A stretch of DNA of 64,000 nt from Klebsiella phage KP13-16, in the sequence record OP617741.1; one strand, given 5' to 3'. The notes below the pieces were generated by a model. It did not search any database. It saw only the letters and a list, made by a program, of their open reading frames with translations, and had not been told where the DNA came from. Shown one piece after another: positions 3,361-42,985 of the stretch. Both the position numbers and the translations under genes were made by a program. The number at the start of each line of letters is the position of its first letter. The stretch's first letter is position 1.

Positions 3361-5481
3361 TTAAACCCTTATATGTTTTACACGTTGAACAACTTCCTGC
3401 ATCTTCCCCTTGTTAAAAGGTCTACTGTTAGGTGCAGATAAGTAACCTGAGACTCTCCGAATGACGTTGATCGTTCCTTCCTCAGTATTGCCACAATCAG
3501 GGCATTCAAAGCCTTCTGCTGTTGCTTTAAACTCTCCATGAAAGCCACACTTCAGACATTTATCAACAGGTTGATTAATCCCAAAGTAATGAATATTTTC
3601 ATATCCATAGTCAATCAAAGCTTCCAAGCCTTTCATGTTATTTTTGAGATTTGGTGTCTCGACATAACCTATATTACCACCTGAACTGATAAAGTCAAAC
3701 CCTGATTCAACATCCCATTTAGTAAAAGGATCAACTTGTTGGTCTACAGGAACATGGAAAGAGTTAGTCAAGTATTCTCTCTTGATAGTTCCAGGAAATT
3801 TCGCATTGATTTTACTGGCAAATTTATAACACAAAGACTCCGCTGGAGTTCCGTAGATACCAAAACCAATACCTGTTTTCTTCTTATAAGCCTCTGCCAT
3901 TTCTGACATAAGACTTAAAATCTTTTTCCCGTAAGCTTTATATTCCTCTAAACTACAATTTGGATAGAGAATTTGAATTGCTTCATATAACCCTACATAA
4001 CCAAAACTTGCTGAAGCATAACCTTTGTAGAAAAGTTTGTCAATAGTTTCTTCAGGATCTAGTCTAGCTAATGCTCCTTCAACAAACATCACAGGATTTT
4101 GTTTTGCTTTAGTTCCCTTAAGGCGATTAATCCTCAACATATGTGCTTCATATGCTGTTTGCATATGCTTATAGAGTTCTTCCAGGAAAAGTTTACCACT
4201 ACTGACAGAATCTTTAGCTATCATTGGTAAATTCAAAGAAACTACACCAAGATTAAATCTACCATCATATTTCTCACCTTGTTCTGTAGCAAAATAAGAA
4301 AGGAAACTACGACATCCCATGCTAGTAACGTGACCTTTTGAAGATTTTGTAACCAGTTTATTTCTAGGGACTGAAATAAAATCTGGGTAAATTCTTTCTG
4401 CACAACACTCCATTGCTAATTGTTTAAGGTCATAATTAGGATCACCAGGATTCATGTTGACACCTTCTTCAAGGAAGAAAATTACTTTTGGGAACACAGG
4501 CGTTACTTTATCCTTACCTAAACCCTCTTTGTGGATTTTTAGATAGTTACGAGTAATCATTCTACCAAATTCTGAGGTATCTAAACCAAGACTAATGGTG
4601 ATAAATGGAGATTGTCCATTTACACTCATTAATGTGTTAACCTGGTAGATAAGAGTTTGCATTGCATCGTAGACATCTTGCTCTGTAAGTTGCATTGCAT
4701 TTATTTTGACTTCAGCACCAAATAAATTTCTAATAAGTTTTACATTTTTATTATAAGTCAGTTCTACATATTGCTTTAAACCTGTATCAATATGTGCGCA
4801 AGTTTGTCCACCATATTGGCTAGAGGCTACAGCCTGAATAATTTGTGTCAACACTGTAGTAGCAACACCAATTGATTTAGGTTTTTCAATGAAAGCATTT
4901 CCAATATGGAAACCATTTTCTAACATGTCTTGGTAATTAACGAGACAACAGTTGCTGAGAGGGCTGATTAGATAATCTAAGTCATGAATATGTCCAAAAC
5001 CGCTTGTATGCCATTCTGAGAGGTCTTTAGGTAGTATTTGAGTCAATGCTACATGCTTACTTAAAATCCCTGCTAAGAGGTCTCTATGAGTATTTACAAC
5101 GTTACTGGGTTTGTTAGCATTCTCACGAGTAAATTCTTCTGCTGTTTGTTCTAAGAAGCCAGATATGTCATTATAAAGTTTCCCATTACCTTCACGGATT
5201 TTATCTCTGTCGTGCCTATACTCAATATAAGTTCTGGCTATGTCATATGTCTTTGGATTAGACATAAGGAAATCTTCAATCATTTTTTGAACATTTGAGA
5301 CTGACTTATTCTCATTGAGATTTTTAACAATATATTCTGTAACCTCGTGAGCAACAAGTTCTGCTGTGATTGATAATGAAGAGTTAGCTAGTGCTGCTTG
5401 ATATATTGCATTGTAAACTTTACGTTCATCAAATTGTTCTGTGCGCCCGTCGCGTTTTATAATTTTATGTTGATACTGCAT
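3361..5481 (-). CDS. nrdD: anaerobic ribonucleoside-triphosphate reductase (class III RNR)
   Basis: Approx 706 aa; C-terminal glycyl-radical motif RRVSGYL and Zn-ribbon CxxC...CxxC; start at MQYQHK after GGAGGAATA RBS. Confidence 0.95.
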   Translation of the reverse strand: MQYQHKIIKRDGRTEQFDERKVYNAIYQAALANSSLSITAELVAHEVTEYIVKNLNENKSVSNVQKMIEDFLMSNPKTYDIARTYIEYRHDRDKIREGNGKLYNDISGFLEQTAEEFTRENANKPSNVVNTHRDLLAGILSKHVALTQILPKDLSEWHTSGFGHIHDLDYLISPLSNCCLVNYQDMLENGFHIGNAFIEKPKSIGVATTVLTQIIQAVASSQYGGQTCAHIDTGLKQYVELTYNKNVKLIRNLFGAEVKINAMQLTEQDVYDAMQTLIYQVNTLMSVNGQSPFITISLGLDTSEFGRMITRNYLKIHKEGLGKDKVTPVFPKVIFFLEEGVNMNPGDPNYDLKQLAMECCAERIYPDFISVPRNKLVTKSSKGHVTSMGCRSFLSYFATEQGEKYDGRFNLGVVSLNLPMIAKDSVSSGKLFLEELYKHMQTAYEAHMLRINRLKGTKAKQNPVMFVEGALARLDPEETIDKLFYKGYASASFGYVGLYEAIQILYPNCSLEEYKAYGKKILSLMSEMAEAYKKKTGIGFGIYGTPAESLCYKFASKINAKFPGTIKREYLTNSFHVPVDQQVDPFTKWDVESGFDFISSGGNIGYVETPNLKNNMKGLEALIDYGYENIHYFGINQPVDKCLKCGFHGEFKATAEGFECPDCGNTEEGTINVIRRVSGYLSAPNSRPFNKGKMQEVVQRVKHIRV

Positions 5482-5565
5482 TATTCCTCCAAAATAAGAA
5501 GCCAGCATTAACTGGCTTAAAAGTAGATCCTTATTTTAGCTTTTATTCTGGTTTCAAATCTTGAT

Positions 5566-5973
5566 TTAAATCAGATAAGTTTGAAGAATAGTCTTTGCTA
5601 ATTGATTATCTACTGTTTTGCCAGCAGCTTTAGCAACCATGTTAATTTTACCCATGAAACTCATAGTGATTTTATCACCATTCTGTACCGCAGTATCCAA
5701 GAAATCACGAATCTCTTCTTCACTCAACTGTGCAGGAAGATAACTTTCCATAAAAGCAATTTCTTCTTCATACTGTTTCAGTTGTGCTTCATGACCTTCA
5801 AGACTTGCACGAGTAGATTTTACAGTAGACTTAATCAAGGCAATAGCATCTTCATCAGTTGAATTTTTATCTTGTGACAATTTTCCTAAAAGAAAGGTTA
5901 GAGTAGCAACCTTTTCTTTATCACCGGATTTACGAAAAGCAAGTTGGTCTTGTTTCATTTTCTCAATAATCAT
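5566..5973 (-). CDS. GatB/YqeY-domain protein
   Basis: ESYLPAQLSEEEIRDFL closely matches YqeY EEYLPEQLSEEEIEAIV; start MIIEKMK after AGGAGA, TAATG overlap with upstream gene. Confidence 0.7.
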   Translation of the reverse strand: MIIEKMKQDQLAFRKSGDKEKVATLTFLLGKLSQDKNSTDEDAIALIKSTVKSTRASLEGHEAQLKQYEEEIAFMESYLPAQLSEEEIRDFLDTAVQNGDKITMSFMGKINMVAKAAGKTVDNQLAKTILQTYLI

Positions 5974-6605
5974 TAATATTCTCCTATTCCACAATAAAGA
6001 GTTTCTCTTGTATTATTTAAATCTTCAGAAACTCTATTAATTTCTTTTTGTAAGATATCCTTATACTGAGGATATTTTTCTATCAAAGTTAAACCTTGAT
6101 TTATATACAACATTTGCCAAGCTCTATGTGCTTCAACAGGATCTGTGAAACCATGTATGGCAATATCATGAAACCTAGCCCTATATCGAGGTACTTTCTG
6201 ATATTTATTTTTCTGTTCAGAAACTCCCAATGGTAAATTATTTTTAGAGTATCTTTTTATAATATAATTATTTAAATCTTTACCTACAAAACCACAGGTG
6301 CTTGGAGAGTATATTTTACTAACCCCAGATAAGAGATCCTTGTCCAGTTCCTTTCCTTCCCAATCTTGGGTTTCCATCCAGGCACGAAAATTACCAAATG
6401 TCAACCATTCTTCACAAACACTACAACCTTTATAAGTAGGAAATCTTCTTTGGTAATTTTCACTATAACAACGCCTTAGCATATTCGTCCAACGATCATA
6501 ATATGGATCTCGCCAAAATACAACTTCTTTACCATTCATACGTTTACTTTTTTGAGTTATATCTTCTAGATCATTGTATCCCTTACCAAAAAGTAATTTA
6601 TTCAT
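5973..6605 (-). CDS. putative homing-endonuclease-like / AP2-type DNA-binding protein (paralog A)
   Basis: Shares W..ML.RCY, C.V.EEW..F.NF..W, LPLGVS, AH..WQ, NRETL blocks with ORF 10999-11661. Confidence 0.5.
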   Translation of the reverse strand: MNKLLFGKGYNDLEDITQKSKRMNGKEVVFWRDPYYDRWTNMLRRCYSENYQRRFPTYKGCSVCEEWLTFGNFRAWMETQDWEGKELDKDLLSGVSKIYSPSTCGFVGKDLNNYIIKRYSKNNLPLGVSEQKNKYQKVPRYRARFHDIAIHGFTDPVEAHRAWQMLYINQGLTLIEKYPQYKDILQKEINRVSEDLNNTRETLYCGIGEY

Positions 6606-7894
6606 TACAATTCTATCTCAAGTAAGTAATCAAGTCTAACTTGACTCAGGTCAAAGACTACAATCTCATCATTTCTCACCCCAGAGTATCCAGCCTTAGC
6701 CCAATAAGATTGGTATCCTTTTGGAGGGCGTTGACTTGTTGGTCCTGTTGGGGTATAAGCATTTCCAACAGCCACTGAAACTAGAAACATGTAAACTTTT
6801 CCATTCCCCTGACCACCACCCGTATAATACATGTTATCACAATATTGGAGACTTTTTGAAGATTGATTTGCGAAATACAATCCTGTTGAGAACATGGCCC
6901 CTGCCTTAACACCAGGACTATCTTTAGGCATCATTAACCCTTTACAGAAAATAGATAACAAATTAGCTACACGTGTTCCGTGCCACAGTTCATGAACATT
7001 ACCATACTCTGTGATAGCTTTATCAAATGGTGCTTGCTGATTTCCAAGATTAATTTTATAGATATTCTTAACTTTAGAACCCATGATGCGACCGCCGTGT
7101 TGGGCATTTTTACTTTCATTGTAGTAATTAACAATACGATCAATTGTAGCAGAATCTTCAACATGAGAGATACCAAAATTAAAGATTTTTTCTACTTCAA
7201 CTTCTTCTTTAGGTTTATCTTCCTGATTCTTTTTAAGTTCTTCAATAAGGTCTAATGTTTCCAGAAGTGCTTTACAGATTTCACGTTGTTCGTCAATGTT
7301 TTTGTGACTAAACAGCAAGTGACGTTTATCACGTGTAGTTGCAACTTTATTAGGAATAAGAACAAAATAAGAATCATTTAAAGTTAAGATCTCATCTTCA
7401 CCTTTACCACTCTTTTCATATTCATCCAAAAGGGATTCAATATTACCAAGATGGATCATTGCTTCTTCCACAGCAGCTTTCTTTACAACTCCTAAAGGAG
7501 TCTTAAACAGACCATCTTTTTCATCATATTTAATGTTAGTAGAACTGGTGATATTATGGATGTTTGCTTTAGCAATTGCTTGAATAAGATTACGACTTGT
7601 GTCGTCTTTACAATCAATTTGCTTAAGTGCAATGTCTACTACGTTAACTTTTTGAGTCAACCCAGTTTCACCAGAGACAGCTTCTAGTTGTGCTTCTTTA
7701 TAACCTTTCTTGATTTTAGATGCAACAAGACTGTCAAACTTCTTTTTACCACCAGAGTAGGAGGTAGTTTGAACCCCGCCACCTACCCGACCAAAACGAA
7801 CTGCAATATTTCCAACGTCATCTAAGGTTGCTTCATAGAATTTATTGTTATTATTCTTTGAATCAAACATGATTAGCATTTTACTCTCAGACAT
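6605..7894 (-). CDS. WGR-domain poly/mono-ADP-ribose polymerase (PARP)-like protein
   Basis: N-terminal KFYEA...RFGRVGGGVQ...KKGYKE matches WGR consensus; LWHGTR...GAMFSTGLYFANQSSKSLQYC matches the PARP1 H-G-S / Y-Y block and a later NDEIVVFD glutamate; RBS GGGGGTGAA. Confidence 0.85.
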   Translation of the reverse strand: MSESKMLIMFDSKNNNNKFYEATLDDVGNIAVRFGRVGGGVQTTSYSGGKKKFDSLVASKIKKGYKEAQLEAVSGETGLTQKVNVVDIALKQIDCKDDTSRNLIQAIAKANIHNITSSTNIKYDEKDGLFKTPLGVVKKAAVEEAMIHLGNIESLLDEYEKSGKGEDEILTLNDSYFVLIPNKVATTRDKRHLLFSHKNIDEQREICKALLETLDLIEELKKNQEDKPKEEVEVEKIFNFGISHVEDSATIDRIVNYYNESKNAQHGGRIMGSKVKNIYKINLGNQQAPFDKAITEYGNVHELWHGTRVANLLSIFCKGLMMPKDSPGVKAGAMFSTGLYFANQSSKSLQYCDNMYYTGGGQGNGKVYMFLVSVAVGNAYTPTGPTSQRPPKGYQSYWAKAGYSGVRNDEIVVFDLSQVRLDYLLEIEL

Positions 7895-7931
7895 TTCACC
7901 CCCTGTTAAGTGAATAAAAGGGCTTTCGCCC

Positions 7932-8369
7932 TTAAAGTTTTTCGAGAAGTTTCAACACAGCTTCTTTATCAAGAACAGTTGAACCGAGGAGTGCTTCAAC
8001 CTCTTCAATTTGGAATACATCTCCAAGTTGGTGGGTATTGACTGGAGGACGGATCTTATCTTTGTGGTTCAGAAAAAGATCTTCTTCAAATCCATCTCGA
8101 ACATATTTCCCTTTCAAATCTGTAATTTCAACAAGCTTAATCAACTTATGAAGTTTTTCAACACGAAACTCAGGTGCTACTTTAGCTTCAACTTCTTCAC
8201 GGAGGTCATCCAAAGAGCTTCGAACAGTATCAAGTTTCTCATAAACTTCTTCAAAGAAGCTAGAATCTAAAATATATTCCATATCTTTAAGAAACTCTTT
8301 GGGAGAGTTTTCAGCATACTCTTTAAGATCTTCAAACCAATCATTAATTTTATCAAACAGTGGATTCAT
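7932..8369 (-). CDS. hypothetical acidic protein
   Basis: 145 aa ORF. Confidence 0.5.
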   Translation of the reverse strand: MNPLFDKINDWFEDLKEYAENSPKEFLKDMEYILDSSFFEEVYEKLDTVRSSLDDLREEVEAKVAPEFRVEKLHKLIKLVEITDLKGKYVRDGFEEDLFLNHKDKIRPPVNTHQLGDVFQIEEVEALLGSTVLDKEAVLKLLEKL

Positions 8370-9535: not shown

Positions 9536-10465
9536 TCACTTCTTATCTCCACTTTTACTTTTCATAATAGAGCTTAAAGATACAAGCGGGGTTTTGGGTA
9601 CAGGTTTCTTTCTAGGGACATAATTTTTGACAAATGGATTAAGATTTTTAGCAATCTCTGGGATGGACATTCCTAAGAGTTTGCTTGCTTCTACCATTTT
9701 TGATCCCACCTCTTTTCCTACAATTACCATGTTATCTTTAGTATAACCTTGGGTTTGGTCTAACAGGATAAAGACTTTTTGAGACAGTTCAATTGTCTCT
9801 CCTGTTAATTTGCACTTAGTTCCTGAAAACTTAGCTTTAAACTCTGCAAAACTAACTGTAAACTCTTTCTTTTCCGCAGAGGCATGTTTAGCCATATCAG
9901 AATAGTAAGAGGCAATGCGTACATCTGGGGCAATCTGTTTATCTGACATCTTCAGGACTCCTTGATCATTACGGGATAGTTCAATTTTTTGTGTTAAGAC
10001 ACCATTCAAGTTATCATAAAAATTTGTATAGTCAATATCTTTAAAATAATTTTTATAAACATTAGATTCAAATTTAATTAAATGGTTGTATTTATAAGAT
10101 AAAAACTTTTTATACCCTGGTGTAACTTTCTCTTGAACCACTCTCAAGATTGCTTCAGATGTTTCATTGATCCTTACTACTTGTACTTCGGTTTTGTCAA
10201 GAGCATAATCTTTTATTCTATTTACTGCTGCTGAAGTTAAACAAACATTCCCTCGTTCATAACCGAGTTTATCATCTAAACGTTCAATGGATATCTTATG
10301 TTTATCCTCATCAAAGGTAACACCAGTATAATCACACTTACCGTCATTCCGTAAGAAAAGTACTTTCATATCTTCAAGGGTTAATTTGAAATCAATACCA
10401 CGCTTCCTGGCATCTTTTTTCTTAGATTCAAAACGTTTTTTGAGTTCTTGTTCGTCTAACTTCAT
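9536..10465 (-). CDS. HNH-endonuclease-like protein with two tandem HNH-type repeats
   Basis: Two copies of C.YTG....S(I/L)(E/D)R(L/I)D...GY...N(V/M) pattern typical of phage HNH nucleases. Confidence 0.5.
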   Translation of the reverse strand: MKLDEQELKKRFESKKKDARKRGIDFKLTLEDMKVLFLRNDGKCDYTGVTFDEDKHKISIERLDDKLGYERGNVCLTSAAVNRIKDYALDKTEVQVVRINETSEAILRVVQEKVTPGYKKFLSYKYNHLIKFESNVYKNYFKDIDYTNFYDNLNGVLTQKIELSRNDQGVLKMSDKQIAPDVRIASYYSDMAKHASAEKKEFTVSFAEFKAKFSGTKCKLTGETIELSQKVFILLDQTQGYTKDNMVIVGKEVGSKMVEASKLLGMSIPEIAKNLNPFVKNYVPRKKPVPKTPLVSLSSIMKSKSGDKK

Positions 10466-10474
10466 ATAGACCTC

Positions 10475-10990
10475 TTATTTGATCACAGTGGCATTTTCAG
10501 GGATTTCAGCTTCATCAAGTACATAGATGGTAACATTGTACCCGGCTTCACACAATGTCTTTTTGATAATATCTTCAACAGAAGACCACTCTGCTCCTCC
10601 AAGACCTGCACCAAGTTTGGGAAGTCCAATTTTAAGATCCTGATTTTCAAAAAGCATTAGCTGTTTAGACATAGCTTTGAAAGAAGATTCAAGCTTATCT
10701 AAATCTGTATTTGGTTTTCCATCCTCACGTTTCCACCAACCCCACCGTCCGTATAAATTATAAATACTTAAATTATACAATGGAGAATGGGCATATGAGA
10801 AATCTCCAAATTTTTTAGGGTCTCCTTTAATAGTTGAATCATCTGCAATAGCGACTTCCGGGAAAGCTTTATCTAAAAGTGGGGCAATCCCACGTTTACG
10901 TGCATTAAAACAGTTACATTGTTGTGCAATAACATTTACTTCTCCACTTTTTGCAGCCAATAACAAATCCATCACTTTATATTTCAACAT
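10475..10990 (-). CDS. macro-domain protein (ADP-ribose binding / hydrolase)
   Basis: VNVIAQQCNCFNARKRGIAPLL and IGLPKLGAGLGG resemble the macro-domain N..N...GG.gv..ai and P.i..G.gG blocks. Confidence 0.6.
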   Translation of the reverse strand: MLKYKVMDLLLAAKSGEVNVIAQQCNCFNARKRGIAPLLDKAFPEVAIADDSTIKGDPKKFGDFSYAHSPLYNLSIYNLYGRWGWWKREDGKPNTDLDKLESSFKAMSKQLMLFENQDLKIGLPKLGAGLGGAEWSSVEDIIKKTLCEAGYNVTIYVLDEAEIPENATVIK

Positions 10991-10998
10991 ATTACCCC

Positions 10999-11661
10999 CT
11001 ATAATTTTAATGTCTCTCTATTTAAACTTATATCTTCTTTTATATCTTGGATCCTATCAAGTAAGGCAGTTTCAACAACCTTATTAAAGTGTGCAGATTC
11101 TTTATATTTTTGTAAGCTTTCCTTGATTGCAATAATTTTATAATCTTGCCACTGTTTATGAGCAAGGTCTGGTGAGTTATGATAACCTAGATAAACAATC
11201 TTACCAGATACATGACAATAAGCTTGGAACCTATCCCTATGATGAGGCTTTTTCTTCTTTTTAAGACTTACCCCTAGTGGGAGGTGTCCTCTTGCAGATC
11301 TACTATCTGTTAATAGGCAGTTAATATAGTTCGGAACCATAACGCAAGTCTCTTTACTATAAAGCTTATTACCTTTAATTAATATATCCTTATCAATGCA
11401 TAAATTATCAAAATCCTTAGATATGGCCCAAGCTTTAAAATTTGAAAAGTATTTCCACTCTTCACTTACAGTACAACCTTCATAGACAAAATAATATGGA
11501 TCTTTTTGTTTTAAATTATAACATCTTCTAAGAATGTCTTTCCATCGGCTATATATCGGACAGAGCCAAATTTGCTTCCATTTACCATCTTCAAATCTAT
11601 TTATAGAGACAGGGTCTACACTATCATTAATGCCATAGTTATGTACAAGTTTTTGTTTCAA
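10999..11661 (-). CDS. putative homing-endonuclease-like protein (paralog B of 5973-6605)
   Basis: Paralogous to 5973-6605 across whole length. Confidence 0.5.
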   Translation of the reverse strand: MKQKLVHNYGINDSVDPVSINRFEDGKWKQIWLCPIYSRWKDILRRCYNLKQKDPYYFVYEGCTVSEEWKYFSNFKAWAISKDFDNLCIDKDILIKGNKLYSKETCVMVPNYINCLLTDSRSARGHLPLGVSLKKKKKPHHRDRFQAYCHVSGKIVYLGYHNSPDLAHKQWQDYKIIAIKESLQKYKESAHFNKVVETALLDRIQDIKEDISLNRETLKL

Positions 11662-12059: not shown

Positions 12060-12292
12060 GGTGCCTCTTCTAATTGGGAATGGGAGATGCCCATCATATC
12101 TGCCAGATCGTCTTTTGTCAACAATTTTCTTTCAAACAAATTTGTAACCAGCAAAACAAACATCTCACCTACGTTATTATTAGATTGCTCTAATAGTAAC
12201 TGCTCAAGGTTAAAAGTTTTAGTATCACTATAATCCTCATTCGTAAGGAAGAAATGCTTTTGTTGTGGGTTTAGCATAGGTCTTTTCCTCAA
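12053..12292 (-). CDS. hypothetical protein
   Basis: 79 aa ORF. Confidence 0.4.
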   Translation of the reverse strand: MRKRPMLNPQQKHFFLTNEDYSDTKTFNLEQLLLEQSNNNVGEMFVLLVTNLFERKLLTKDDLADMMGISHSQLEEAPW

Positions 12293-12518
12293 ATCTCAGT
12301 TCGCCGTTAAGTTTTTCAATTCTATGTGGGAGAACATCCTGGCCCCACCAAGGCTTTTCATGAATACGATAACTCCAGACTGTCATGAAAGAGTCTTCTT
12401 CAGTGCCTTCTCCTTTGATTCTAACAGTCTTATTATAGATATCCCGGATAGTAGCTTCTATCCCATCTACTAAGACAATCTCATGAATTCTGTAAGGCAT
12501 CTGGTATTCATTAGTCAC
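12237..12518 (-). CDS. hypothetical protein (GTG start overlapping nadR-like stop)
   Basis: GTGA start/stop overlap, RBS GGAG. Confidence 0.4.
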   Translation of the reverse strand: MTNEYQMPYRIHEIVLVDGIEATIRDIYNKTVRIKGEGTEEDSFMTVWSYRIHEKPWWGQDVLPHRIEKLNGELRFEEKTYAKPTTKAFLPYE

Positions 12519-14116
12519 AAATATGCTCCAAGAATATGTTCTGAATAAACCTCTTCTAGAAAATCTTCCCAAAATTCCTTATCTACTGAAGAAGGATAAT
12601 GAGAGTTTTCTGCTAAAATTTCAACTTCCTGTACAACCTTCTCAAGTTCTTCCTGAACCTCATTGAAAGGCATGTTACCAGTCTTAACAGATAAAATCAA
12701 GGGATTTTGTTCCATAGGATAAACAAGATCACCATGCTTATAAATGTTAATAAGTTGATATCCACCACGAAGAGCGTGGCTCAGAGCTTTCCAATCCACA
12801 CCTTGATTAGCCTCAGCCAAACGTGCTCTATCGCCATATTCTTCCCACAGTTTAAATAAAGACGTCTTCATTTCTTTTACTGAGACTGTTTGTTGAAACT
12901 TTCTTCCAAGAACTTCATAAAAGATTTGATTTACACCATTTTTATCCGTAGCAAAGATCCAATATGCAAACTCATTGAGTGGAAAATATTCTTTGAAATC
13001 ACCAACCTTTTTAGAATCATCTATTGTTTTAATACATTCTACAACTTCACGTAATGCTGCAAGCCTGGAGCCTTTAATTCCATACTTAGATGCTTGTTTC
13101 CTTACATAACCAAAAAGCCCTGTCAGCTTTTTAGTATAAAAACGGTGACGATTGTCACGAATATATTGCCACGTTTCAGAATTGGTTACGAGCTTACTAT
13201 CTGTATCTTGCAAACGGAGAGGATCAGCCACCCACTCAACTTCTGGGGAAAGGTATAGCACCATGTCGTAGAAGTTATGAGCTTCTTCAACAGCCAACGA
13301 CATAAACATACCATCATTGTAGCTCACTTTACCAGCACAAATTGCAGAAAAATGTGTTATAAGATTGGTTGTATCTGAAATATGCACCACATGTGCCTGA
13401 TTTGAGTTACTAAATTCCTCAATACGGTGGATCATAGCAATCTTAAGATATGCTTCACGATCCATTAAAAATTCACTGCCATTGTACATCTGTTCGCAAA
13501 TATGCCGCCCTACTTCGGGTGTTGATGTTGTTCCATAGTGCTGTGCTAGAAGCTCAGTCATAGTGGATTTGCCAGTGCTCTCAACACCAATGATAGCTAC
13601 ACGTTTTACAAAACGAGGACGAGCTTGATCTGAAAGATACTCGAAGTTATCACGTAGATTAGTACGAATACGTGTTGCAGAGATATCCACTCCTGTACGC
13701 TCTGCATCCAACACAACATGCTCCACCTCTGGGAAATGCTCAGAGAAGTACTCAGTATACTCCGGCTCAGAAGAGAAAGCATGTGTCAACACTTCCCCTT
13801 CTGGGATTTTAGCACGAATCAACTCAGCATAAGCCTTACCACCTTCTGGATAACCAGGAATATCAGACTCATCCACATAATCTACAATCACTTTGTGTTG
13901 TAACCCTGAGTCTTGAATTAAAGATTTAAGATCCAATAAACGCTGGGTTAAACCTAGACGGTCTTGCATCCAAGGTGTTTGAGTGTCGTTAAACTTCTGG
14001 TCAAACGACAGAAACAGGTATAGCCGATCAATACCTGAATCTACAGCCATACGAATGAAGTTGACGTGTCCTGCTGTCAGGGGTGCAAATTTACCTAAAA
14101 TTAAGCCTACGTTCAT
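12515..14116 (-). CDS. nadR: NadR-like bifunctional NMN adenylyltransferase / ribosylnicotinamide kinase with extra C-terminal domain
   Basis: N-terminal GKFAPLTAGHVNFI (HxGH-type nucleotidyltransferase), central P-loop GVESTGKSTMTELLA as in NadR RNK domain, about 180 extra C-terminal residues of unknown family; no HTH. Confidence 0.8.
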   Translation of the reverse strand: MNVGLILGKFAPLTAGHVNFIRMAVDSGIDRLYLFLSFDQKFNDTQTPWMQDRLGLTQRLLDLKSLIQDSGLQHKVIVDYVDESDIPGYPEGGKAYAELIRAKIPEGEVLTHAFSSEPEYTEYFSEHFPEVEHVVLDAERTGVDISATRIRTNLRDNFEYLSDQARPRFVKRVAIIGVESTGKSTMTELLAQHYGTTSTPEVGRHICEQMYNGSEFLMDREAYLKIAMIHRIEEFSNSNQAHVVHISDTTNLITHFSAICAGKVSYNDGMFMSLAVEEAHNFYDMVLYLSPEVEWVADPLRLQDTDSKLVTNSETWQYIRDNRHRFYTKKLTGLFGYVRKQASKYGIKGSRLAALREVVECIKTIDDSKKVGDFKEYFPLNEFAYWIFATDKNGVNQIFYEVLGRKFQQTVSVKEMKTSLFKLWEEYGDRARLAEANQGVDWKALSHALRGGYQLINIYKHGDLVYPMEQNPLILSVKTGNMPFNEVQEELEKVVQEVEILAENSHYPSSVDKEFWEDFLEEVYSEHILGAYL

Positions 14117-14135
14117 GGGGTCTCCTTTGTCTAAT

Positions 14136-14172
14136 CAGTTTGTATCTTAGATTACTATTAAGTAATTGTCAA
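14136..14172 (-). promoter_or_regulatory. sigma70-like promoter upstream of nadR-like gene
   Basis: Minus strand TTGACA-17-TAAGAT followed by AAGGAGA RBS and ATG. Confidence 0.5.
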
Positions 14173-14442
14173 CTGTTAATTGGTTAATTAGGTATGTAGT
14201 TTGTTTTACACTTACAATGATACACCTCTAGGTAGGATAATCAAGGAAATAATAGTAAATCGTATAACTACTATGGACATAGTATCCATAATACCTCCTA
14301 TAAAAGAAAAGCTATCCGTCCCTTCCTATCTAACGATAGTCAGGAACGAATAGCTATAGAATCTCCCCTCGCTTCGCTCGGCACCTTGTAGGGTTAGGGT
14401 AGCATATTTTTCAGCGAAAGTCAATATCCCTGAGACATTTAT

Positions 14443-14718
14443 TTAAGGCAGTGGAAAGTAAATTGTGTTGGACTCGTAATCGTAGTAGTATTGTATTCCA
14501 GTTTCACGAGATACACGTAGCGCCAGCTTAACTCCTGCAATGAGTTTGTCCATTTCAGCAATCTCTTTACGGAAGCGTGTTACTGTGTGAGAGAATGCAC
14601 TATGTGGCACCCATTTACGGTTTACACGATCACGTTTGAAGTGACGGAAATCTTCAATGACGTTATTGCGCTGTTTACGCAGTACAGCCATCAGGTGGTA
14701 ATACGGATGTTTGTTCAT
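14443..14718 (-). CDS. hypothetical protein (paralog of 11676-12059)
   Basis: Paralog alignment, higher GC context. Confidence 0.5.
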   Translation of the reverse strand: MNKHPYYHLMAVLRKQRNNVIEDFRHFKRDRVNRKWVPHSAFSHTVTRFRKEIAEMDKLIAGVKLALRVSRETGIQYYYDYESNTIYFPLP

Positions 14719-14729
14719 TATTTTACTCC

Positions 14730-15008
14730 TTACTTAGGGAACACAGAACCGGGGGTAGCTTCTTCCATTTGCAGAAGCTGTTCACACATACCATACACCT
14801 CTCCGTATGTGATCTCGGTTATACCTGTGTCGTCACAAATCATTTCACACAGTTTATTAATGTCTATGCCACCGCAACGCTGCTCGGACTTACGCATCCC
14901 TTCACCTTCTTTCCAGTCAACTGGAGACTGGAGAAGAATCAGTTCTCCATTACCCAGTTCAACCAGGTAATCTGCAATATTTTCGCGTGGGGTATATTGT
15001 TCAGTCAT
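14730..15008 (-). CDS. hypothetical protein
   Basis: 92 aa ORF. Confidence 0.45.
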   Translation of the reverse strand: MTEQYTPRENIADYLVELGNGELILLQSPVDWKEGEGMRKSEQRCGGIDINKLCEMICDDTGITEITYGEVYGMCEQLLQMEEATPGSVFPK

Positions 15009-15430
15009 TTTATCTCCTTAACAAAATCAGATGCACGATCAAACCAGAATGTGCAATGTTTTTCAGTGGCTTCTATTAAAGCATCAAATGCTTCTTGTGT
15101 CAACTCCACAGGGGTATACCGATTTGGACGCTCATAGTATAAACCAGTATAAGTCCTTTCAAAGTCTTTCTGGCGTTCTTTCAGGCCTTCCACGGTTAAG
15201 CCTACCATATACCCATCCTGTTTACTACCCCAGCCTGCTTCAGATTCGATAACAGGGATACAGAAGCCATAAAAACGCTCTGTATCGCTCTCCACCGGGT
15301 TTTTAGCAGAAGCCGCACCGTTTTCCCATCCCTCTTTAAAAATCGTATACAGCTTCTCGTAGAGGCTTCTATTCGAGCCTTCTTTGTATGGGTGAAGTTC
15401 TTCAAACTTCGCACGAATAGTGTTTGTCAT
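15005..15430 (-). CDS. hypothetical protein
   Basis: 141 aa ORF. Confidence 0.5.
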   Translation of the reverse strand: MTNTIRAKFEELHPYKEGSNRSLYEKLYTIFKEGWENGAASAKNPVESDTERFYGFCIPVIESEAGWGSKQDGYMVGLTVEGLKERQKDFERTYTGLYYERPNRYTPVELTQEAFDALIEATEKHCTFWFDRASDFVKEIK

Positions 15431-15441
15431 AAAAGCTCCTT

Positions 15442-15573
15442 ACTCCATTAATGAAAAAATCAAACAAAGAATTTGTCCACCAATACAAATAAATCCTGCG
15501 GTAAGGTTATCAAAACCCCAAATGAAAACATTTGCTAAAATCATCAATAAAATATTAAGACCAAACCACATCA
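15442..15573 (-). CDS. small hydrophobic membrane protein (43 aa)
   Basis: Unlisted ORF MMWFGLNILLMILANVF..., strong RBS AGGAGGTGA. Confidence 0.4.
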
Positions 15574-15897
15574 TTCACCTCCTTTAGGGATGTATTGCGG
15601 CATAGGCATGTATGCCACTACAGGCTCCCAGTCAAAGTAGAAACGACCATTAATCACTGCAAACTTACCACTACCACCCTGTACAACTTGGCAAACACCG
15701 TATTCCCCATCAGCCATGATGACAACCCAGTTGCCGAATGGCATGTTGTGGATACCATCAACATCAATCCAAGGATGTTGTAAACTGTAAATCTTGTTTA
15801 CGACCTCTGTGAAGTCTGGATCATACAAACCGAGGTCATGCGCAATGTTCAACAACATTTCTTTGTACAGTTCTTCACGTGTCATAGATTCAGCCAT
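15571..15897 (-). CDS. hypothetical protein
   Basis: 108 aa ORF. Confidence 0.5.
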   Translation of the reverse strand: MAESMTREELYKEMLLNIAHDLGLYDPDFTEVVNKIYSLQHPWIDVDGIHNMPFGNWVVIMADGEYGVCQVVQGGSGKFAVINGRFYFDWEPVVAYMPMPQYIPKGGE

Positions 15898-16274
15898 TAG
15901 CGTACTTCCAAGCTTGGGATTAAGGTTTGTGGAGCAAAGATAACACGAGTGTGATCAACACTCACCTGAGCACCATCAATTTGCTCAATGAAATAGGTGG
16001 TATCCGTAGAGAGTCCCATATAATGTTTCTTCACAGAACCGTTAGCCTTATCACGACAAGTGATGATCAGTGTACGATCAGTGCTACTGTTATCTTTCGC
16101 ACAGTAACCTTCAATACGCATTAACTCTTTGTCTGTACGAGTGTTGATGAAGTGGGTGGAACGCAACACTTCGAAGTTATCGCCAGCGGTGGCGATGTTA
16201 CGACTTGCAACGTCAGCAGCTTGTTCACAACCAGCCAAACCCAAGCATAAAGCAATCAGCAGAATCTTTTTCAT
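15897..16274 (-). CDS. lipoprotein
   Basis: Signal peptide with lipobox LAGC (MKKILLIALCLGLAGC). Confidence 0.65.
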   Translation of the reverse strand: MKKILLIALCLGLAGCEQAADVASRNIATAGDNFEVLRSTHFINTRTDKELMRIEGYCAKDNSSTDRTLIITCRDKANGSVKKHYMGLSTDTTYFIEQIDGAQVSVDHTRVIFAPQTLIPSLEVR

Positions 16275-16440
16275 TTTACTCTCCTTCTTTATTCACAATT
16301 TTGTAGTATGGAAGTTTCTTAATCAACTCTTCCGGTATACCGCTTTCAGACCAAGTGGCTCCACCGTCTGTAGAGGCGTAGCCCTTGTTGCCAACGTACT
16401 TACGCATGATAGCACGAAACATGTTTTGATAGATAGTCAT
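16270..16440 (-). CDS. hypothetical protein (56 aa)
   Basis: Unlisted ORF MTIYQNMFRAIMRKYVGNKG..., ATGA overlap with upstream ORF. Confidence 0.4.
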
Positions 16441-16517
16441 TTACAAATACACCCACCAGAGAAAATACTACCATAACATTTCTCGCACATAACATCTTCA
16501 ATAAATAATATTTTCAT
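16440..16517 (-). CDS. tiny Cys-rich peptide (25 aa)
   Basis: MKILFIEDVMCEKCYGSIFSGGCICK with RBS GGAGGAAG; ATGA-coupled on both sides. Confidence 0.3.
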
Positions 16518-16975
16518 TTCTTCTTCCTCCTTTTAAGTTTGTTGTGACCACGACCTTTCGTGATACGGAAGTTGTAGTTCTCCTTCTCACGAGGCAGTGT
16601 AGGAGATCGTGGAGAGATACCTACCCAGTAGTCCATAGTATCAGCAGTGTAGCATCCTCCTGTGAACAAAGCAATAACCCTACCCTCTAGTGCAGAGTAA
16701 TTGTCACATAAAACTACCGCTTTAACTTTCTGACGGTCTTTCCCCGTAGATGCTCCAATAACACGCAACTCATCTTTTGTCTCACTTTCAAGAATCATCC
16801 ATCCTTCATGCTGCCAATCATAGCCTTTGTCCCAACCAGCCATAGGGTAGCCATGCTCATCGAAAATTTTACCATCTTCCATATAGAAGAACTCCTCGCT
16901 GGTAAAGTGACGGTTCTTAACACGTTTACCTTCACGCATTGCTTCTTGGGCTTGAGTCCAGGTTAATTCGTACAT
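16514..16975 (-). CDS. hypothetical protein, possible DUF2829 (Tad2-like) fold
   Basis: Start MYELTWTQAQEAMREGKRVKNRHF... resembles DUF2829 N-terminal alpha-helix/GKKV.R.gW pattern; basic C-terminus. Confidence 0.35.
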   Translation of the reverse strand: MYELTWTQAQEAMREGKRVKNRHFTSEEFFYMEDGKIFDEHGYPMAGWDKGYDWQHEGWMILESETKDELRVIGASTGKDRQKVKAVVLCDNYSALEGRVIALFTGGCYTADTMDYWVGISPRSPTLPREKENYNFRITKGRGHNKLKRRKKK

Positions 16976-16976
16976 T

Positions 16977-17216
16977 TTACCCTCTCTTTTCAATTTTAGT
17001 AACATTACGAGGCCAGATGATATCTCTGCTATTATAACTAATTGTATCACCTCCTCGGATGAAACGATAGTTATTTCCCCACCCTTGTTCCCAAGCGAGG
17101 GCAACTTTAAAACGTTCACCATCTTTTGTTTCTATAAAGAAAGTTTCTTCATAATCTGGGTTGTCATAAATATTATCACAAGCCTGCTCTGTACCACTAA
17201 AATTCTTAAAATCCAT
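16977..17216 (-). CDS. hypothetical protein
   Basis: 79 aa ORF, TAAAATG junction with downstream gene. Confidence 0.5.
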   Translation of the reverse strand: MDFKNFSGTEQACDNIYDNPDYEETFFIETKDGERFKVALAWEQGWGNNYRFIRGGDTISYNSRDIIWPRNVTKIEKRG

Positions 17217-17218
17217 TA

Positions 17219-17596
17219 CTATACTCCTTTACAGAAGTTAACCACATCTTCATACGAGAGTCCAGCACGCTGGACCGCGTTCCGAATAGTTTCCTTTGCT
17301 GATTGAATGGCTTGCTCTTTTTCTTTCAAAAGTTGAGCGTTAGTTTTAACTTTACCAACCCAACCACCATAAGATTGCTGTCTGATTTCTGCAAACAGAT
17401 GTTCTAATTCATTAGCTGGTTTAGCTATGAGTACTGGATTACCTACCTGAGTAATACTATACTCATAATATTCATTTTTACCAATACTTTTCAAGTACTT
17501 AATTGCATGTTCCGGGTTGTCTGCTTCAACATAGCCAAGATGCTTGATAGTACGGCCTTCGCAATCACCTTCAGTAGTTACTTTATAAATAGGCAT
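17219..17596 (-). CDS. hypothetical protein
   Basis: Start MPIYKVTT after AGAGGAGAGAAAAG. Confidence 0.5.
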   Translation of the reverse strand: MPIYKVTTEGDCEGRTIKHLGYVEADNPEHAIKYLKSIGKNEYYEYSITQVGNPVLIAKPANELEHLFAEIRQQSYGGWVGKVKTNAQLLKEKEQAIQSAKETIRNAVQRAGLSYEDVVNFCKGV

Positions 17597-17656
17597 CTTT
17601 TCTCTCCTCTTGTTTGTATGCAACAATCTTAGCAAACTGAAAATTAAAGTCAATAG

Positions 17657-17684
17657 TTGACATCAAATATTTTTAGAGTAAAAT
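17657..17684 (+). promoter_or_regulatory. sigma70-like promoter at strand-switch point (TTGACA-16/17-TAAAAT)
   Basis: Perfect -35 hexamer, AT-rich -10, located at divergence of minus and plus gene blocks. Confidence 0.5.
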
Positions 17685-17990
17685 GTGTGTATCTTAACCA
17701 AGAAAGCAGGTCAATCTCATAATGAGTACCTTTCAGGCATTTTGTATTCTTCTGATGCGTGTCGTGTGAAGCTGGCTGACCTTCGTCACAACATAGATAT
17801 TCGTCGTTTAAAAGGTTTGCGAGAAAAAGACTTTGCAAGAATGCAAAAGTATCTTAAGATGTACAAAACTATTGAGATGATGCTTGAATGGGATGTTTTG
17901 CATAGCCCAGCAGCTTACTTTTCTCTTGGGGATTATTATGAACATCGTGTTAGTCACATTGAGGAACTCTTGAATGATAAAGGCAACTAA
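17685..17990 (+). CDS. hypothetical protein (start uncertain; ORF begins inside promoter -10)
   Basis: Open frame only; listed GTG start overlaps the -10 so true start must be internal. Confidence 0.3.
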   Translation: MCILTKKAGQSHNEYLSGILYSSDACRVKLADLRHNIDIRRLKGLREKDFARMQKYLKMYKTIEMMLEWDVLHSPAAYFSLGDYYEHRVSHIEELLNDKGN

Positions 17991-41001: not shown

Positions 41002-41200
41002 GTAGATTTTCTCTTACTTTACGTATAATGTGATTGGGTATAAACAATAAAACAAGAATAAAAGGCCATATAATTATGCAAATTGTACTATAGAGAGCTT
41101 TTAATAATAAAGACCCTCCATCCTTGATCATCATAACAGAAATAAATTCAATAACACCTAAAACTAAACCTGTAAAAAGATAGATCTGTAATATCTGCAC
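40985..41200 (-). CDS. membrane protein
   Basis: 71 aa hydrophobic. Confidence 0.45.
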   Translation of the reverse strand: MQILQIYLFTGLVLGVIEFISVMMIKDGGSLLLKALYSTICIIIWPFILVLLFIPNHIIRKVRENLHEKLR

Positions 41201-42351
41201 TATTCTTTACCTTCTGCAATACGAAGGAGTTTAACAACACCTTCAATTTCTCGTCTTGGTTTAGAGTATAGACGACGCTTATGCTTTGTCAAGAATGATT
41301 CCAGAAAATCTAGTGGTTTAAATGACAAAATCTGTTCTACTTGGTGATCAACATCATAGGAATTCTGAACCATACGATAAACAGCTTGTTTTACAGTCAC
41401 TGGAGTCCAACCTTTCGCAATGGCAGTCTCGGTCACAACACGCCTCTTACCTTCAGACCAACCTTCATTAATTGGGTAAGCATTTTCACCGTATTTCTTT
41501 TCAAACAACTCTACGGCTTTGTCTGCTAACTGGTCTTCTTCGTCTTCTGTGCGGGAATAGCTATAAAATGAACTGTTTTTCTTCCTACGACCACTAAACA
41601 GAGCAAGATCATCATAGTTTTCTAGGGCAAGTTGTGCCAGCAGTTCAATGTCATCACTTTCTGACAGAAGGTTGTTAGCATTGTACTTGAGTTCATATTC
41701 ATTAACAGAATCACGATCCCGGTCTAACACAAAAGTCTCTGGTTTGAAGTCATAATCGAACTTATATTTACCATTTCTTAACGTGGTTACATACAAACCA
41801 TTTACAAACAGTGTACACTCTTGGTTGTTTGAGTCTTTTGCATAAGCTTTCCCACGAGAATTCTCAATAATGATATCTCGTGATGTTGTAGGGGCATAGT
41901 TATCTTTAATTTCATCCATAGCCCAAGAAGGGATGTTGTAGATATTGACCTCAACGTAGTCTTCTCCACCTTCAAGGCACCCTTCGTCAATCTCAATAGC
42001 TAAAACCTTTGATTCAAACATATCATCGTAAACAAATTTTGGTTTCCATCGGTCTACTCCGTTCAGCACCTCAATTTCTGCACCTTCACGAAGTAAAACA
42101 AGAAAGCCCAACTTCATACCTTCACCAAACTTTCCAATTGTAGTTGGATCCTCTTTTTTAGAGGATTTTCCCATCAAAAGTGCGTTAACAGGGATCTTAC
42201 CACCATGAGAGATAATATGCAAACTATCGTGTTTAAAGTTAACATCAAACTTACCTGTGTCGATAGCATTTTGCAGTAATTCACGAGCACCCTGCCACCA
42301 GGACCAGTGTGAGACATAATCTTCTGTAAGACTAAGTTTAACTAATTTCAT
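41200..42351 (-). CDS. GHKL (Bergerat-fold) ATPase-domain protein
   Basis: N-box ELLQNAIDTG, G2-box GKFGEGMKLGF. Confidence 0.5.
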   Translation of the reverse strand: MKLVKLSLTEDYVSHWSWWQGARELLQNAIDTGKFDVNFKHDSLHIISHGGKIPVNALLMGKSSKKEDPTTIGKFGEGMKLGFLVLLREGAEIEVLNGVDRWKPKFVYDDMFESKVLAIEIDEGCLEGGEDYVEVNIYNIPSWAMDEIKDNYAPTTSRDIIIENSRGKAYAKDSNNQECTLFVNGLYVTTLRNGKYKFDYDFKPETFVLDRDRDSVNEYELKYNANNLLSESDDIELLAQLALENYDDLALFSGRRKKNSSFYSYSRTEDEEDQLADKAVELFEKKYGENAYPINEGWSEGKRRVVTETAIAKGWTPVTVKQAVYRMVQNSYDVDHQVEQILSFKPLDFLESFLTKHKRRLYSKPRREIEGVVKLLRIAEGKE

Positions 42352-42364
42352 ATCTTTCCTTATC

Positions 42365-42985
42365 TTATCCTAACATTGGGAGGAATAACCTGTTGTTACT
42401 CAGAATTAACTCTTTTTGAATAAGTCCATAAATGACAAAGGCATGACCACACTTCTTATCTTCTGCATGGATCACATCGAAGTAAGTCATACCCAGTTCC
42501 TGATAGTAGTACCCATCAAAATCAAGTAATGCGATCTTATCACCACTGGCTACACGAGTCCATAAATCTTTAAATGTTTCTGTCTTGACGACTGCACGTG
42601 CGTACATAGGGAAGTAGAGATTCCTTCGTGCTGAGATGTAGTCTAATTTTTTGCCATCCCAAATACTATACAAAGGTTTTCTGCCTTTTCCCATAGGATA
42701 TCTTTCCGCTCTCCAGTTAGCCCAACCTGTTTTAGCCCACTTATAATACTCTTCAGTAGGGTTTCCATTTTCATCTACGTGTTCTTCATAGACTTTACTG
42801 AATTGCCAAGCGTTTTCCATGTTCTTTGCTACAATACCATTATACATGGGAATGTCACGAAGATAGAAAGGGCTAAGTTGCTGTCCATAACCTTCTTTAT
42901 CACGGCTTGTAGTGTTGACTACTTTAAATCCCTCTGGAACTTTATCACGCATACCAACTACAATGAGATTATCAAACTTCATCAT
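42365..42985 (-). CDS. hypothetical protein, weak NADAR(YbiA)-like features
   Basis: SPFY ... NMENAWQFSK loosely like NADAR SNF...EHYFQA.K. Confidence 0.45.
   Translation of the reverse strand: MMKFDNLIVVGMRDKVPEGFKVVNTTSRDKEGYGQQLSPFYLRDIPMYNGIVAKNMENAWQFSKVYEEHVDENGNPTEEYYKWAKTGWANWRAERYPMGKGRKPLYSIWDGKKLDYISARRNLYFPMYARAVVKTETFKDLWTRVASGDKIALLDFDGYYYQELGMTYFDVIHAEDKKCGHAFVIYGLIQKELILSNNRLFLPMLG

Follow-up and report, generated by a model that had tools for sequence, protein, structure and literature searches.

A predicted nucleic-acid-break-activated ADP-ribosyltransferase of the PARP family in Klebsiella phage KP13-16 and its relation to a neighbouring macrodomain gene

What is a poly(ADP-ribose) polymerase (PARP) family gene doing in a Klebsiella phage, and does it work together with a macrodomain gene lying 2.6 kb away? 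We examined these questions in a stretch of 64,000 nt of Klebsiella phage KP13-16 (sequence record OP617741.1), which is called the window throughout and to whose positions all coordinates refer. The gene is an open reading frame (ORF) of 429 amino acids (aa), situated in a block of early/middle-type genes of a lytic Klebsiella myovirus (Table 1). The original prediction had taken it for a bona fide, eukaryote-type PARP with an N-terminal WGR domain, encoded by a phage, rare in phages and forming a writer/eraser pair with the macrodomain; the strand of the gene (minus) and the central regulatory (helical) domain of the protein were missed. Its phage origin is secure: Klebsiella phage vB_KpM_FBKp34 (MW394390, Stephanstirmvirinae) matches 85% of the window with ~96% identity. 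From sequence and structure comparisons, the protein is predicted to function, most likely, as a nucleic-acid-break-activated ADP-ribosyltransferase.

The motifs on which the family assignment had been based (NNNKFYEATL, VRFGRVGGGVQ, KIKKGYKEAQ, ELWHGTRVANLLSIFCKGLMMP, GAMFSTGLYFANQSSKSLQYC and RNDEIVVFD) are all found in the translation of the ORF, and profile searches bore this assignment out at a level well above chance. Matches to the WGR (PF05406) and PARP catalytic (PF00644) families both exceeded the Pfam gathering cutoffs of 22 and 26.7 bits, and a match to the PARP regulatory domain, likewise above its cutoff (26.8 bits), was found between them. The ORF also matched PHROG 23333 (E 5e-52). 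When it was compared with PDB sequences by phmmer, PARP1 catalytic fragments were retrieved (E 1e-17), with NDEIVVFD aligned opposite YNEYIVYD; the PARP1 segments LWHGSR, GIYFAD, KSANYC and YNEYIVY all have aligned counterparts in the phage ADP-ribosyltransferase (ART) domain. Nothing relevant was returned from PDB when the WGR region alone was used as a phmmer query, and a family profile was needed, for which 36 homologs of at least 40% identity were aligned (alignment A1). This profile aligned with the WGR-CAT chain of PARP1 (4dqy_C, E 3.5e-37) in one unbroken stretch over the WGR, helical (HD) and ART domains, placing its 'ryGRVG' over 'sWGRVG' of PARP1, and it covered all three domains of PARP2 just as continuously (E 6.5e-37).

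The residues H305, G306, T307, Y340, K347, S348, Y351, N408 and E410 of the ART domain are invariant among the 36 homologs. In HMMER alignments, the first seven of these have H862, G863, S864, Y896, K903, S904 and Y907 of PARP1 as their counterparts, and E988 stands opposite E410. The His-Tyr-Glu (H-Y-E) triad is intact and consists of H305/Y340/E410, equivalent to H862/Y896/E988 of PARP1; the catalytic Glu, on which the original prediction depended, is present. Conservation extends to the WGR domain, with invariant K18, Y20, G35, R36, K60 and Y65, and to the helical domain, where leucines L149 and L210 are kept in all homologs.

Modelling with AlphaFold2 (AF2) on the same alignment gave a mean pLDDT of 82 and a pTM of 0.67, with helices of the regulatory domain at residues 98-117, 139-162, 166-179 and 197-225. 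When PDB was searched with this model by Foldseek, WGR-CAT chains of PARP1 in complex with a DNA double-strand break came first (E 1e-25 to 1e-23, TM 0.61-0.67; for instance 8g0h_D with E 9.5e-26, and 4dqy_C with TMq 0.66-0.67), followed by PARP2/HPF1 on a DNA break (6x0l, E 6e-23). The modelled fold is that of the PARP1/2 WGR-HD-ART chain. As for the structural confirmation of the triad that had been proposed, the triad and nicotinamide-site residues do fall within beta strands that the model predicts for the ART core, while the assignment of the triad itself comes from the HMMER alignment. Zinc fingers, a BRCT domain and an N-terminal tail were not found in the protein by Pfam. Since the WGR domain starts as early as residue 6 and no further Pfam domains are present, the protein is not a PARP1 ortholog and resembles instead the minimal design of PARP2/3 or of bacterial PARPs.

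Several known systems share this design. WGR-HD-ART is the standard architecture of bacterial PARPs (PMC5966428, PMC8120803), and the phage protein can be likened, by their published descriptions, to HaPARP of Herpetosiphon aurantiacus and CdPARP of Clostridioides difficile, which have the order WGR-PARP_reg-PARP_cat, ~400-450 aa and an H-Y-E triad. Both make poly(ADP-ribose) (PAR) in vitro: DNA was needed to activate HaPARP, and activated DNA was present in the CdPARP assay (PMC4245714, PMC5966428, PMC8120803). These two bacteria also encode PARG (DUF2263), which reverses PAR and of which no signature was detected in the window. Human PARP2, PARP3 and the core of PARP1 have the same domain order and fold, and their H-Y-E, G863, K903, S904 and Y907 all have equivalents in the phage protein; identity is, however, only ~20-22%, the phage protein lacks the zinc fingers, BRCT domain and N-terminal region, and HPF1 is not expected in the host.

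The ORF follows the compact design of PARP1/2/3 (clade 1) and of the 'bacterial PARPs', and we consider it reasonably probable that it encodes a break-gated, NAD+-dependent ADP-ribosyltransferase. The mechanism that we propose is modelled on the conservation of the WGR and helical domains, on PARP1-3 and on HaPARP. The WGR domain would bind a DNA (or RNA) break or end, which would lift the block imposed by the helical domain on the NAD+ site, and the ART domain would then use host NAD+ to ADP-ribosylate itself and further proteins. With no HPF1 present, the acceptors are likely to be acidic residues. The most plausible role would be modification of host or phage proteins of DNA metabolism at a time when host and phage DNA ends abound. 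The expense in NAD+ would be offset by the phage's own salvage genes (a NadR-like one in the window; NAMPT, Prs, NadR and PnuC in FBKp34), and the nearby macrodomain could strip such marks, though not as a dedicated partner.

Nucleic-acid ends may be an alternative target. Taken further, this would make nucleic acid the main substrate, with ADP-ribosylation of phosphorylated DNA or RNA ends serving either to cap ends or nicks of the phage genome against host exonucleases or to prevent the host chromosome from being repaired. PARP2/3 share the minimal WGR-HD-ART design, and PARP1, PARP2 and PARP3 are reported to modify DNA (PMC5843604). Some of the gene neighbourhoods are also suggestive: in Cellulophaga phage phi4:1, the PARP gene lies between those of CCA/poly(A) polymerase and DNA ligase, and PolyA_pol and RlaP are encoded near PARP at two other loci (L007 and L017). 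Such end-processing neighbourhoods are, however, not conserved and are absent from the window. Moreover, the PARP gene is located outside the structural block, so the enzyme would be made after genome entry, too late to shield incoming ends. For these reasons, we find it unlikely that nucleic acid is the main substrate.

Modification of proteins by a break-gated enzyme, which we prefer, has points against it as well. The tryptophan of the WGR motif is replaced by Phe (F34), although Y, W or F occur at this position in bacterial PARPs, many of which have Y or F in place of W (PMC5966428). The loop ahead of the catalytic Glu is much shorter than that of PARP1, and an invariant Asn stands where PARP1 has Y986; because of these two differences, chain elongation and branching may differ or be absent. 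A gene neighbourhood conserved across PARP-carrying phages was sought and none was found, for which reason the context gives no firm pathway. The association with NAD+ genes (see below) is anecdotal and has to be set against the high base rate of such genes in large phages, and no functional study of any phage PARP was found in the literature searched. As for the products, the original prediction overstated its case in equating a bona fide H-Y-E triad with polymer synthesis: chains titled 'Protein mono-ADP-ribosyltransferase PARP4' were among the sequence matches of both phmmer and the family profile. An intact triad is required for chain synthesis but is no proof of it, as PARP3 and PARP4 retain H-Y-E, yet are known to mono-ADP-ribosylate only.

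The PARP gene is not new, since it had already been annotated in a near-identical phage, and it adds no new kind of gene. FBKp34 gp111 (QQV91759.1) has equal length and 94% aa identity, and its GenBank record reads 'poly [ADP-ribose] polymerase', with WGR, regulatory and catalytic domains named; a preprint mentioning FBKp34 contains nothing on the PARP gene. In Klebsiella phage 05F01, a 78% ortholog of the same length (gene_103) is annotated as 'ADP-ribosylation'. Both orthologs have the three domains and lie at the same locus, beside the genes for anaerobic ribonucleotide reductase. As early as 2005, a survey recorded that phage Aeh1 has a PARP-like gene (PMC1266365). A survey from 2014 listed PARPs in phages Aeh1 and Cellulophaga phi4:1, together with 28 bacterial PARPs, most of them consisting of WGR and catalytic domains and seven also having the regulatory domain (PMC4245714), and a 2022 census of viral NAD+/ADP-ribose systems counted 'PART (PARP)' as one of the ART families found most often in viruses (PMC9503650).

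The claim of rarity in phages was upheld, with tblastn detecting PARP in 15 of 50,697 phage records. These include two Klebsiella phages, two uncultured jumbo phages and the Cellulophaga phi4:1/phi17:2 group (26% identity), and Xanthomonas and Stenotrophomonas jumbo phages carry PARP at 33-34% identity. Such more distant homologs (phi4:1 gp031, XacN1 ORF414 and Xoo-sp13 of Xanthomonas jumbo phages, Stenotrophomonas CM1, RAS14) are full-length and annotated as PARP, yet they are only 26-34% identical, have unrelated hosts and neighbourhoods, and are basal to the clade of the window protein. The family as a whole is sizeable: with E<=1e-30, 309 clusters were obtained from an exhaustive search of 1.84 billion cluster representatives, and with E<=1e-3 the number rose to 2,684. 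Homologs of 50-94% identity are metagenomic proteins, one of them encoded on a 145-kb phage-like contig. A GenBank protein outside this range (P0009, 'MAG: WGR domain-containing protein, partial [Actinobacteria bacterium]'), encoded on a 7.9-kb contig, shares 99% identity with the window PARP across 70% of its length and probably represents a piece of phage KP13-16 or of a very close relative, mis-binned in a bacterial metagenome-assembled genome (MAG).

Bacterial chromosomal copies have 40-44% identity to the window PARP. One is located on a 589-kb contig that also encodes flagellin, SmpB and NAD salvage, another on a contig with PhoH, M23 peptidase and low-molecular-weight phosphatase (LMWPc), and further copies were found in Thioploca and Sulfurovum MAGs. 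A scan of GTDB genomes detected 4 loci and says little about bacterial prevalence, because it was based on exact peptide patterns only. Human PARP1-3 are ~20-22% identical to the phage protein in structural alignments, and in a rough neighbour-joining (NJ) tree, human PARP1 occupied a long branch outside the whole phage/bacterial/fungal family. The term 'eukaryote-type' is accordingly apt for the architecture and misleading for the ancestry: the nearest kin are phage-like contigs, bacterial chromosomes (40-60% identity) and one fungal clade. It is imprecise because the WGR-HD-ART arrangement is also bacterial and human PARP1-3 are far more distant.

The fungal clade comprises proteins of Yarrowia sp. 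(P0032/P0033) and Smittium (P0042/P0044/P0053), further sequences (P0043, P0048, P0050, P0051, P0056 and P0092) and one locus (L015). Low-complexity inserts aside, these are 44-57% identical to the phage PARP over the full length, which is far nearer than human PARP1-3. Its members come from Kickxellomycotina, from Trichomonascus, from two species of Yarrowia and from Hesseltinella, which we take to belong to Mucoromycota. In Yarrowia, the gene lies on a 2.29-Mb contig amid the eukaryotic genes PEPCK, MT-A70, PAC4 and ESF1. In NJ bootstraps, the fungi were monophyletic in 196 of 200 replicates and grouped with the phage-type clade, without the bacterial clade, in 184 of 200. The tree suggests horizontal transfer into yeasts, a lineage said to lack PARPs, and does not give its direction.

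Given this patchy occurrence, we also considered whether the gene might be the remnant of a PARP obtained by horizontal transfer, decaying or catalytically dead and of no present use. Besides the sporadic distribution, a homing-endonuclease gene abuts the 3' end of PARP, the stop codon of which overlaps the ATG of this downstream HNH endonuclease gene (TAATG). The ORF is nevertheless full-length, with all NAD+-site residues kept, and its catalytic and WGR residues are invariant in the 36 homologs. Its Shine-Dalgarno sequence is strong, base composition matches that of the genome (GC of 0.359 in the gene and 0.355 on average in the window), and dN/dS equals 0.145 against the FBKp34 ortholog and 0.094 against that of 05F01. 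We regard such a remnant as very improbable. Recent acquisition was ruled out by the GC content being the same as that of the genome, and pseudogenization by dN/dS of 0.09-0.15. The PARP gene is a resident gene under purifying selection, and it adjoins the anaerobic ribonucleotide reductase genes in KP13-16, FBKp34 and 05F01 alike.

We then turn to the neighbouring macrodomain ORF. It had no Pfam match at default thresholds (Macro was below the cutoff, with E 0.026), and the best NCBIfam match, DarG, also remained below the cutoff (E 2e-6); PHROG 335 matched with E 1e-42. In PDB, phmmer retrieved BT1257 (2afc/2fg1, E 1e-6, aa 18-158), SCO6735 (5e3b, E 2e-4), 5m31 (E 3e-3) and TARG1 (E 0.015), the matches covering the ORF nearly end to end. 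The structure 5m31 is entitled 'Appr-1-p processing domain protein', and we take it to be the DarG macrodomain. By these comparisons, the ORF is assigned as a real macrodomain of the ALC1/TARG1/DarG class, so this part of the original prediction stood. Its Gly-rich ADP-ribose loop (LPKLGAGLGGAEW) is kept, and the pattern P-x-[IL]-G-[AC]-G-L-[AG]-G-x-x-W is common to SCO6735, DarG, TARG1 and the phage ORF. The catalytic Lys of TARG1 (K84) and DarG (K80) is not conserved, 'PTKKHW' of DarG being aligned opposite 'YGRWGW'. The 'GLDR' of TARG1 (Asp125) presumably corresponds to 'GLGG' of the phage ORF, that is, to Gly at the position of the catalytic Asp. BT1257 and SCO6735 resemble the phage ORF in loss of the catalytic Lys and are active via other residues according to their authors. 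The phage protein is an orphan that consists of a single domain and lacks a DarT-binding one.

The possibility that PARP and this macrodomain constitute a dedicated writer/eraser module, in which the latter specifically erases the marks of the former, can be judged from several lines of evidence. Both genes are on the minus strand, between a promoter-like site (12121-12093) and a terminator-like hairpin (5518-5499), and both signals coincide with a promoter and a terminator annotated in FBKp34. The genes are probably in one transcription unit, and this likely co-transcription is the sole positive evidence for pairing; it is made up of one strong promoter-like site and the FBKp34 annotation. 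The site itself is weak evidence alone, because the whole promoter scan was not above shuffled controls (29 sites, with 33.7 expected). Compatible with pairing are also the class of the macrodomain, of which the member SCO6735 hydrolyses PARP-dependent protein ADP-ribosylation (PMC5087735), and the presence of both genes, ~5 kb apart, in 05F01.

The histories of the two genes are, however, decoupled. The macrodomain family is present in 662 phage records, mostly of Escherichia, Pseudomonas and Vibrio phages without PARP, as against 15 records for PARP. Compared with 05F01, the window has 78% identity in PARP and 42-46% in the macrodomain, whereas the comparison with FBKp34 gives 94% (dS 0.30) for PARP and 99.4% (dS 0) for the macrodomain. 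Four unrelated genes separate the two in the window. In the neighbourhoods examined around PARP in the other elements, neither annotation nor Pfam marks revealed a macrodomain, and when the window macrodomain was searched by tblastn over all fetched loci, 05F01 was the sole match. By chance, PARP is expected to have a macrodomain only a few kb away, since 41% of myoviruses possess one (PMC9503650). An eraser of the PARG type (DUF2263; signature GGG-X6-8-QEE) is not evident either: the motif GGG-X(5-9)-QEE, strict or relaxed, did not occur in any of the six frames of the window, and PARG was not annotated in the examined parts of FBKp34, which leave out ~56-100 kb. With 662 against 15 records and decoupled histories, a dedicated pair is not supported, and we hold the specific module to be doubtful.

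For the macrodomain, a role of its own is more plausible. SCO6735, DarG and TARG1 also undo the thymidine-ADP-ribosylation of DNA by DarT (PMC9411070), orphan phage NADAR hydrolases (AdfN) are proven anti-DarTG1 factors (PMC11825919), and phage ADP-ribose-processing domains act mostly on soluble ADP-ribose derivatives according to the 2022 census (PMC9503650). The macrodomain probably acts as an ADP-ribose hydrolase in its own right and may be an anti-DarT factor; counter-defence against DarT2 would explain its wide distribution better than pairing with PARP.

The supply of NAD+ is another part of the context that can be compared. A NadR-like gene is located in the adjacent upstream unit, 4.6 kb upstream of PARP, and FBKp34 has genes for NAMPT, Prs, NadR, PnuC and Sir2 outside the region corresponding to the window. 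When the FBKp34 NAMPT, Prs, PnuC, Sir2 and DUF1768 proteins were compared by tblastn with the window and the other PARP loci, only NadR-like and PnuC matches were obtained; from this it follows that the NadR-like gene is the only member of the FBKp34 NAD+ toolkit in the window. Its 533-aa product has a C-terminal part of no assigned function, 99.6% identical to a 'putative thioredoxin' encoded at the same locus in FBKp34, which is devoid of the NadR part there and encodes NadR, 38% identical, at another place. The arrangement has the look of a domain fusion or of a gene insertion specific to phage KP13-16. NAD+ genes beside PARP homologs were also observed in unrelated elements, at loci L018 (6164-9305), L008 (3730-6516 and 10001-11290) and L017 and on the contig of P0045. 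The metagenomic contig L018 has the order NUDIX, RNase T, NadR-like, PnuC and PARP; in one bacterial genome, NAPRTase, nicotinamidase-like and NMNAT-like genes occur within 6 kb of PARP; a SIR2 gene adjoins PARP on the P0045 contig; and an NAD kinase is encoded 7 kb off in L017. Anecdotal as it is, this recurrence fits an NAD+-consuming enzyme paired with NAD+ supply.

The same genes could be viewed differently, if PARP were a regulated NAD+ sink or conflict effector acting in superinfection exclusion, in NAD+ starvation of host processes or defences, or in inactivation of defence proteins in the manner of AcrIF11 or T4 Alt. Phage ARTs are commonly used for host takeover and anti-defence (PMC9503650, PMC8120803), the FBKp34 toolkit (NAMPT, Prs, NadR, PnuC, Sir2) could shield the phage's own needs, and the spread of PARP across phages is sporadic, like that of accessory genes. 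T4 Alt, ModA and ModB are the best-understood precedent of NAD+-dependent ARTs used by a phage in infection (PMC8120803); they are, however, mono-ARTs of the R-S-E (cholera-toxin-like) type without WGR and HD, Alt being packaged in the virion, and are not homologs at the family level. That the WGR and helical domains have been retained, their key residues being invariant, points to a ligand-gated activity, not to a constitutive NADase, and no defence-related neighbour or fusion appeared in the Pfam and PHROG annotation, no PADLOC scan having been made. An NAD+ sink or conflict effector appears improbable to us, and the break-gated ADP-ribosyltransferase remains our preferred interpretation.

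Table 1. Positions of the PARP gene, its domains and signals, and other features in the window
Feature	Position	Strand	Remarks
PARP ORF	6605..7894	minus	429 aa; ATG 7894-7892, stop TAA 6607-6605 (ORF list, codons checked)
WGR domain, PF05406	7688..7879	minus	aa 6-69; E 3.3e-7, 30.8 bits
WGR motif F34-G35-R36	7787-7795	minus	counterpart of PARP1 W-G-R in the family-profile alignment
PARP regulatory/helical domain, PF02877	7214..7591	minus	aa 102-227; E 2.2e-8, 34.7 bits
ART (PARP catalytic) domain, PF00644	6608..7150	minus	aa 249-429; Pfam match aa 249-399, E 3.6e-23, 82.5 bits
ART key codons	H305 6980-6982, Y340 6875-6877, K347/S348 6851-6856, Y351 6842-6844, E410 6665-6667	minus	codons checked
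Shine-Dalgarno sequence AGGGGGTG	7897-7904	minus	strong; just 5' of the PARP start; read off the sequence
Hairpin AAGGGC-GAAA-GCCCTT	7918-7933	minus	upstream of the PARP start; also picked up by the terminator scan
Macrodomain ORF	10475..10990	minus	171 aa; BT1257/SCO6735 subgroup within the ALC1/TARG1/DarG-like class; start of PARP 2,581 bp away
Sigma-70-like promoter TTGACA-17-TATGAT	12093..12121	minus	best match; likely start of the macrodomain and PARP unit; coincides with FBKp34 annotation
Terminator-like hairpin	5499..5518	minus	8-bp stem and T tail; likely unit end; coincides with FBKp34 terminator between YqeY and NrdD
NadR-like nicotinamide mononucleotide (NMN) adenylyltransferase/ribosylnicotinamide kinase fusion	12515..14116	minus	533 aa; NadR part aa 1-305; TIGR01526 E 1.5e-48, Pfam AAA_28 E 2.5e-15
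HNH endonuclease genes	5973-6605, 10999-11661	minus	paralogous; PHROG 953 E 1e-61 and 1e-72
DUF6939 protein	42365..42985	minus	Pfam DUF6939 E 1.8e-9; NADAR-DarT1 E 0.007, sub-threshold; FBKp34 locus has DUF1768 protein gp012

The region around the PARP gene is mosaic, with insertions and replacements relative to FBKp34. Directly downstream of PARP, the first HNH gene stands where FBKp34 has a different, unrelated small ORF of 468 bp, and the second one lies directly upstream of the macrodomain gene; both are probably mobile homing endonucleases that add to the local mosaicism. Between the macrodomain and PARP, a 309-aa ORF (9536-10465, minus strand) matches phage HNH families and PHROGs described as 'Srd anti-sigma factor / decoy of host sigma70', and its counterpart in FBKp34 is annotated as 'anti-sigma factor'. 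The hairpin preceding the PARP start may act as an attenuator or stabiliser and not as a full stop, because its T tail (TTATT) is weak.

Differences from FBKp34 were observed elsewhere in the window as well. A stretch of ~4.5 kb (13200-17700) has no FBKp34 counterpart and is probably a mosaic insertion; its GC content is 0.38-0.41 as against ~0.35, and its small ORFs are without family matches, one of them (15897-16274) being a likely lipoprotein. The segment 40400-43420 is replaced relative to FBKp34. It encodes the DUF6939 protein, a candidate orphan ADP-ribosyl hydrolase of an anti-DarT1-like kind, beside a 383-aa protein with faint Sacsin/HATPase-like matches (41200-42351, minus strand). 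Finally, NrdD (3361-5508, minus strand) has 715 aa in the window and 1,005 aa in FBKp34 (4965-7982 of locus L001). The ~900 bp extra in the latter (L001 6557-7459) suggests an intein or another in-frame mobile insertion, absent from phage KP13-16.

Bacterial and phage PARPs are referred to in the literature as catalytically active orthologues of unknown function. What is added here is a well-documented phage member of this family, evidence of selection acting on it, and caution regarding its macrodomain neighbour. Two leads emerge in addition, namely the recurrent NAD+ salvage genes beside PARPs and the fungal sister clade. From these, a broader and rather speculative model can be drawn, in which the phage PARP belongs to a compact WGR-HD-ART clade spread by horizontal transfer between fungi on one side and phages or bacteria on the other, the fungal members grouping with the phage-type clade and not with canonical eukaryotic PARP1-3, and acts as a DNA-break-gated switch in a phage NAD+/ADP-ribose cycle. 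In such a cycle, PARP would use up NAD+, macrodomain or NADAR-like hydrolases would free ADP-ribose, and NadR, NAMPT, Prs and PnuC would remake NAD+. Phages FBKp34, 05F01 and KP13-16, with Klebsiella as their host, would offer a tractable system for knockouts, NAD+ measurement and the finding of ADP-ribosylated targets. If the model is true, the NAD+/ADP-ribose cycle could serve host takeover or counter-defence.

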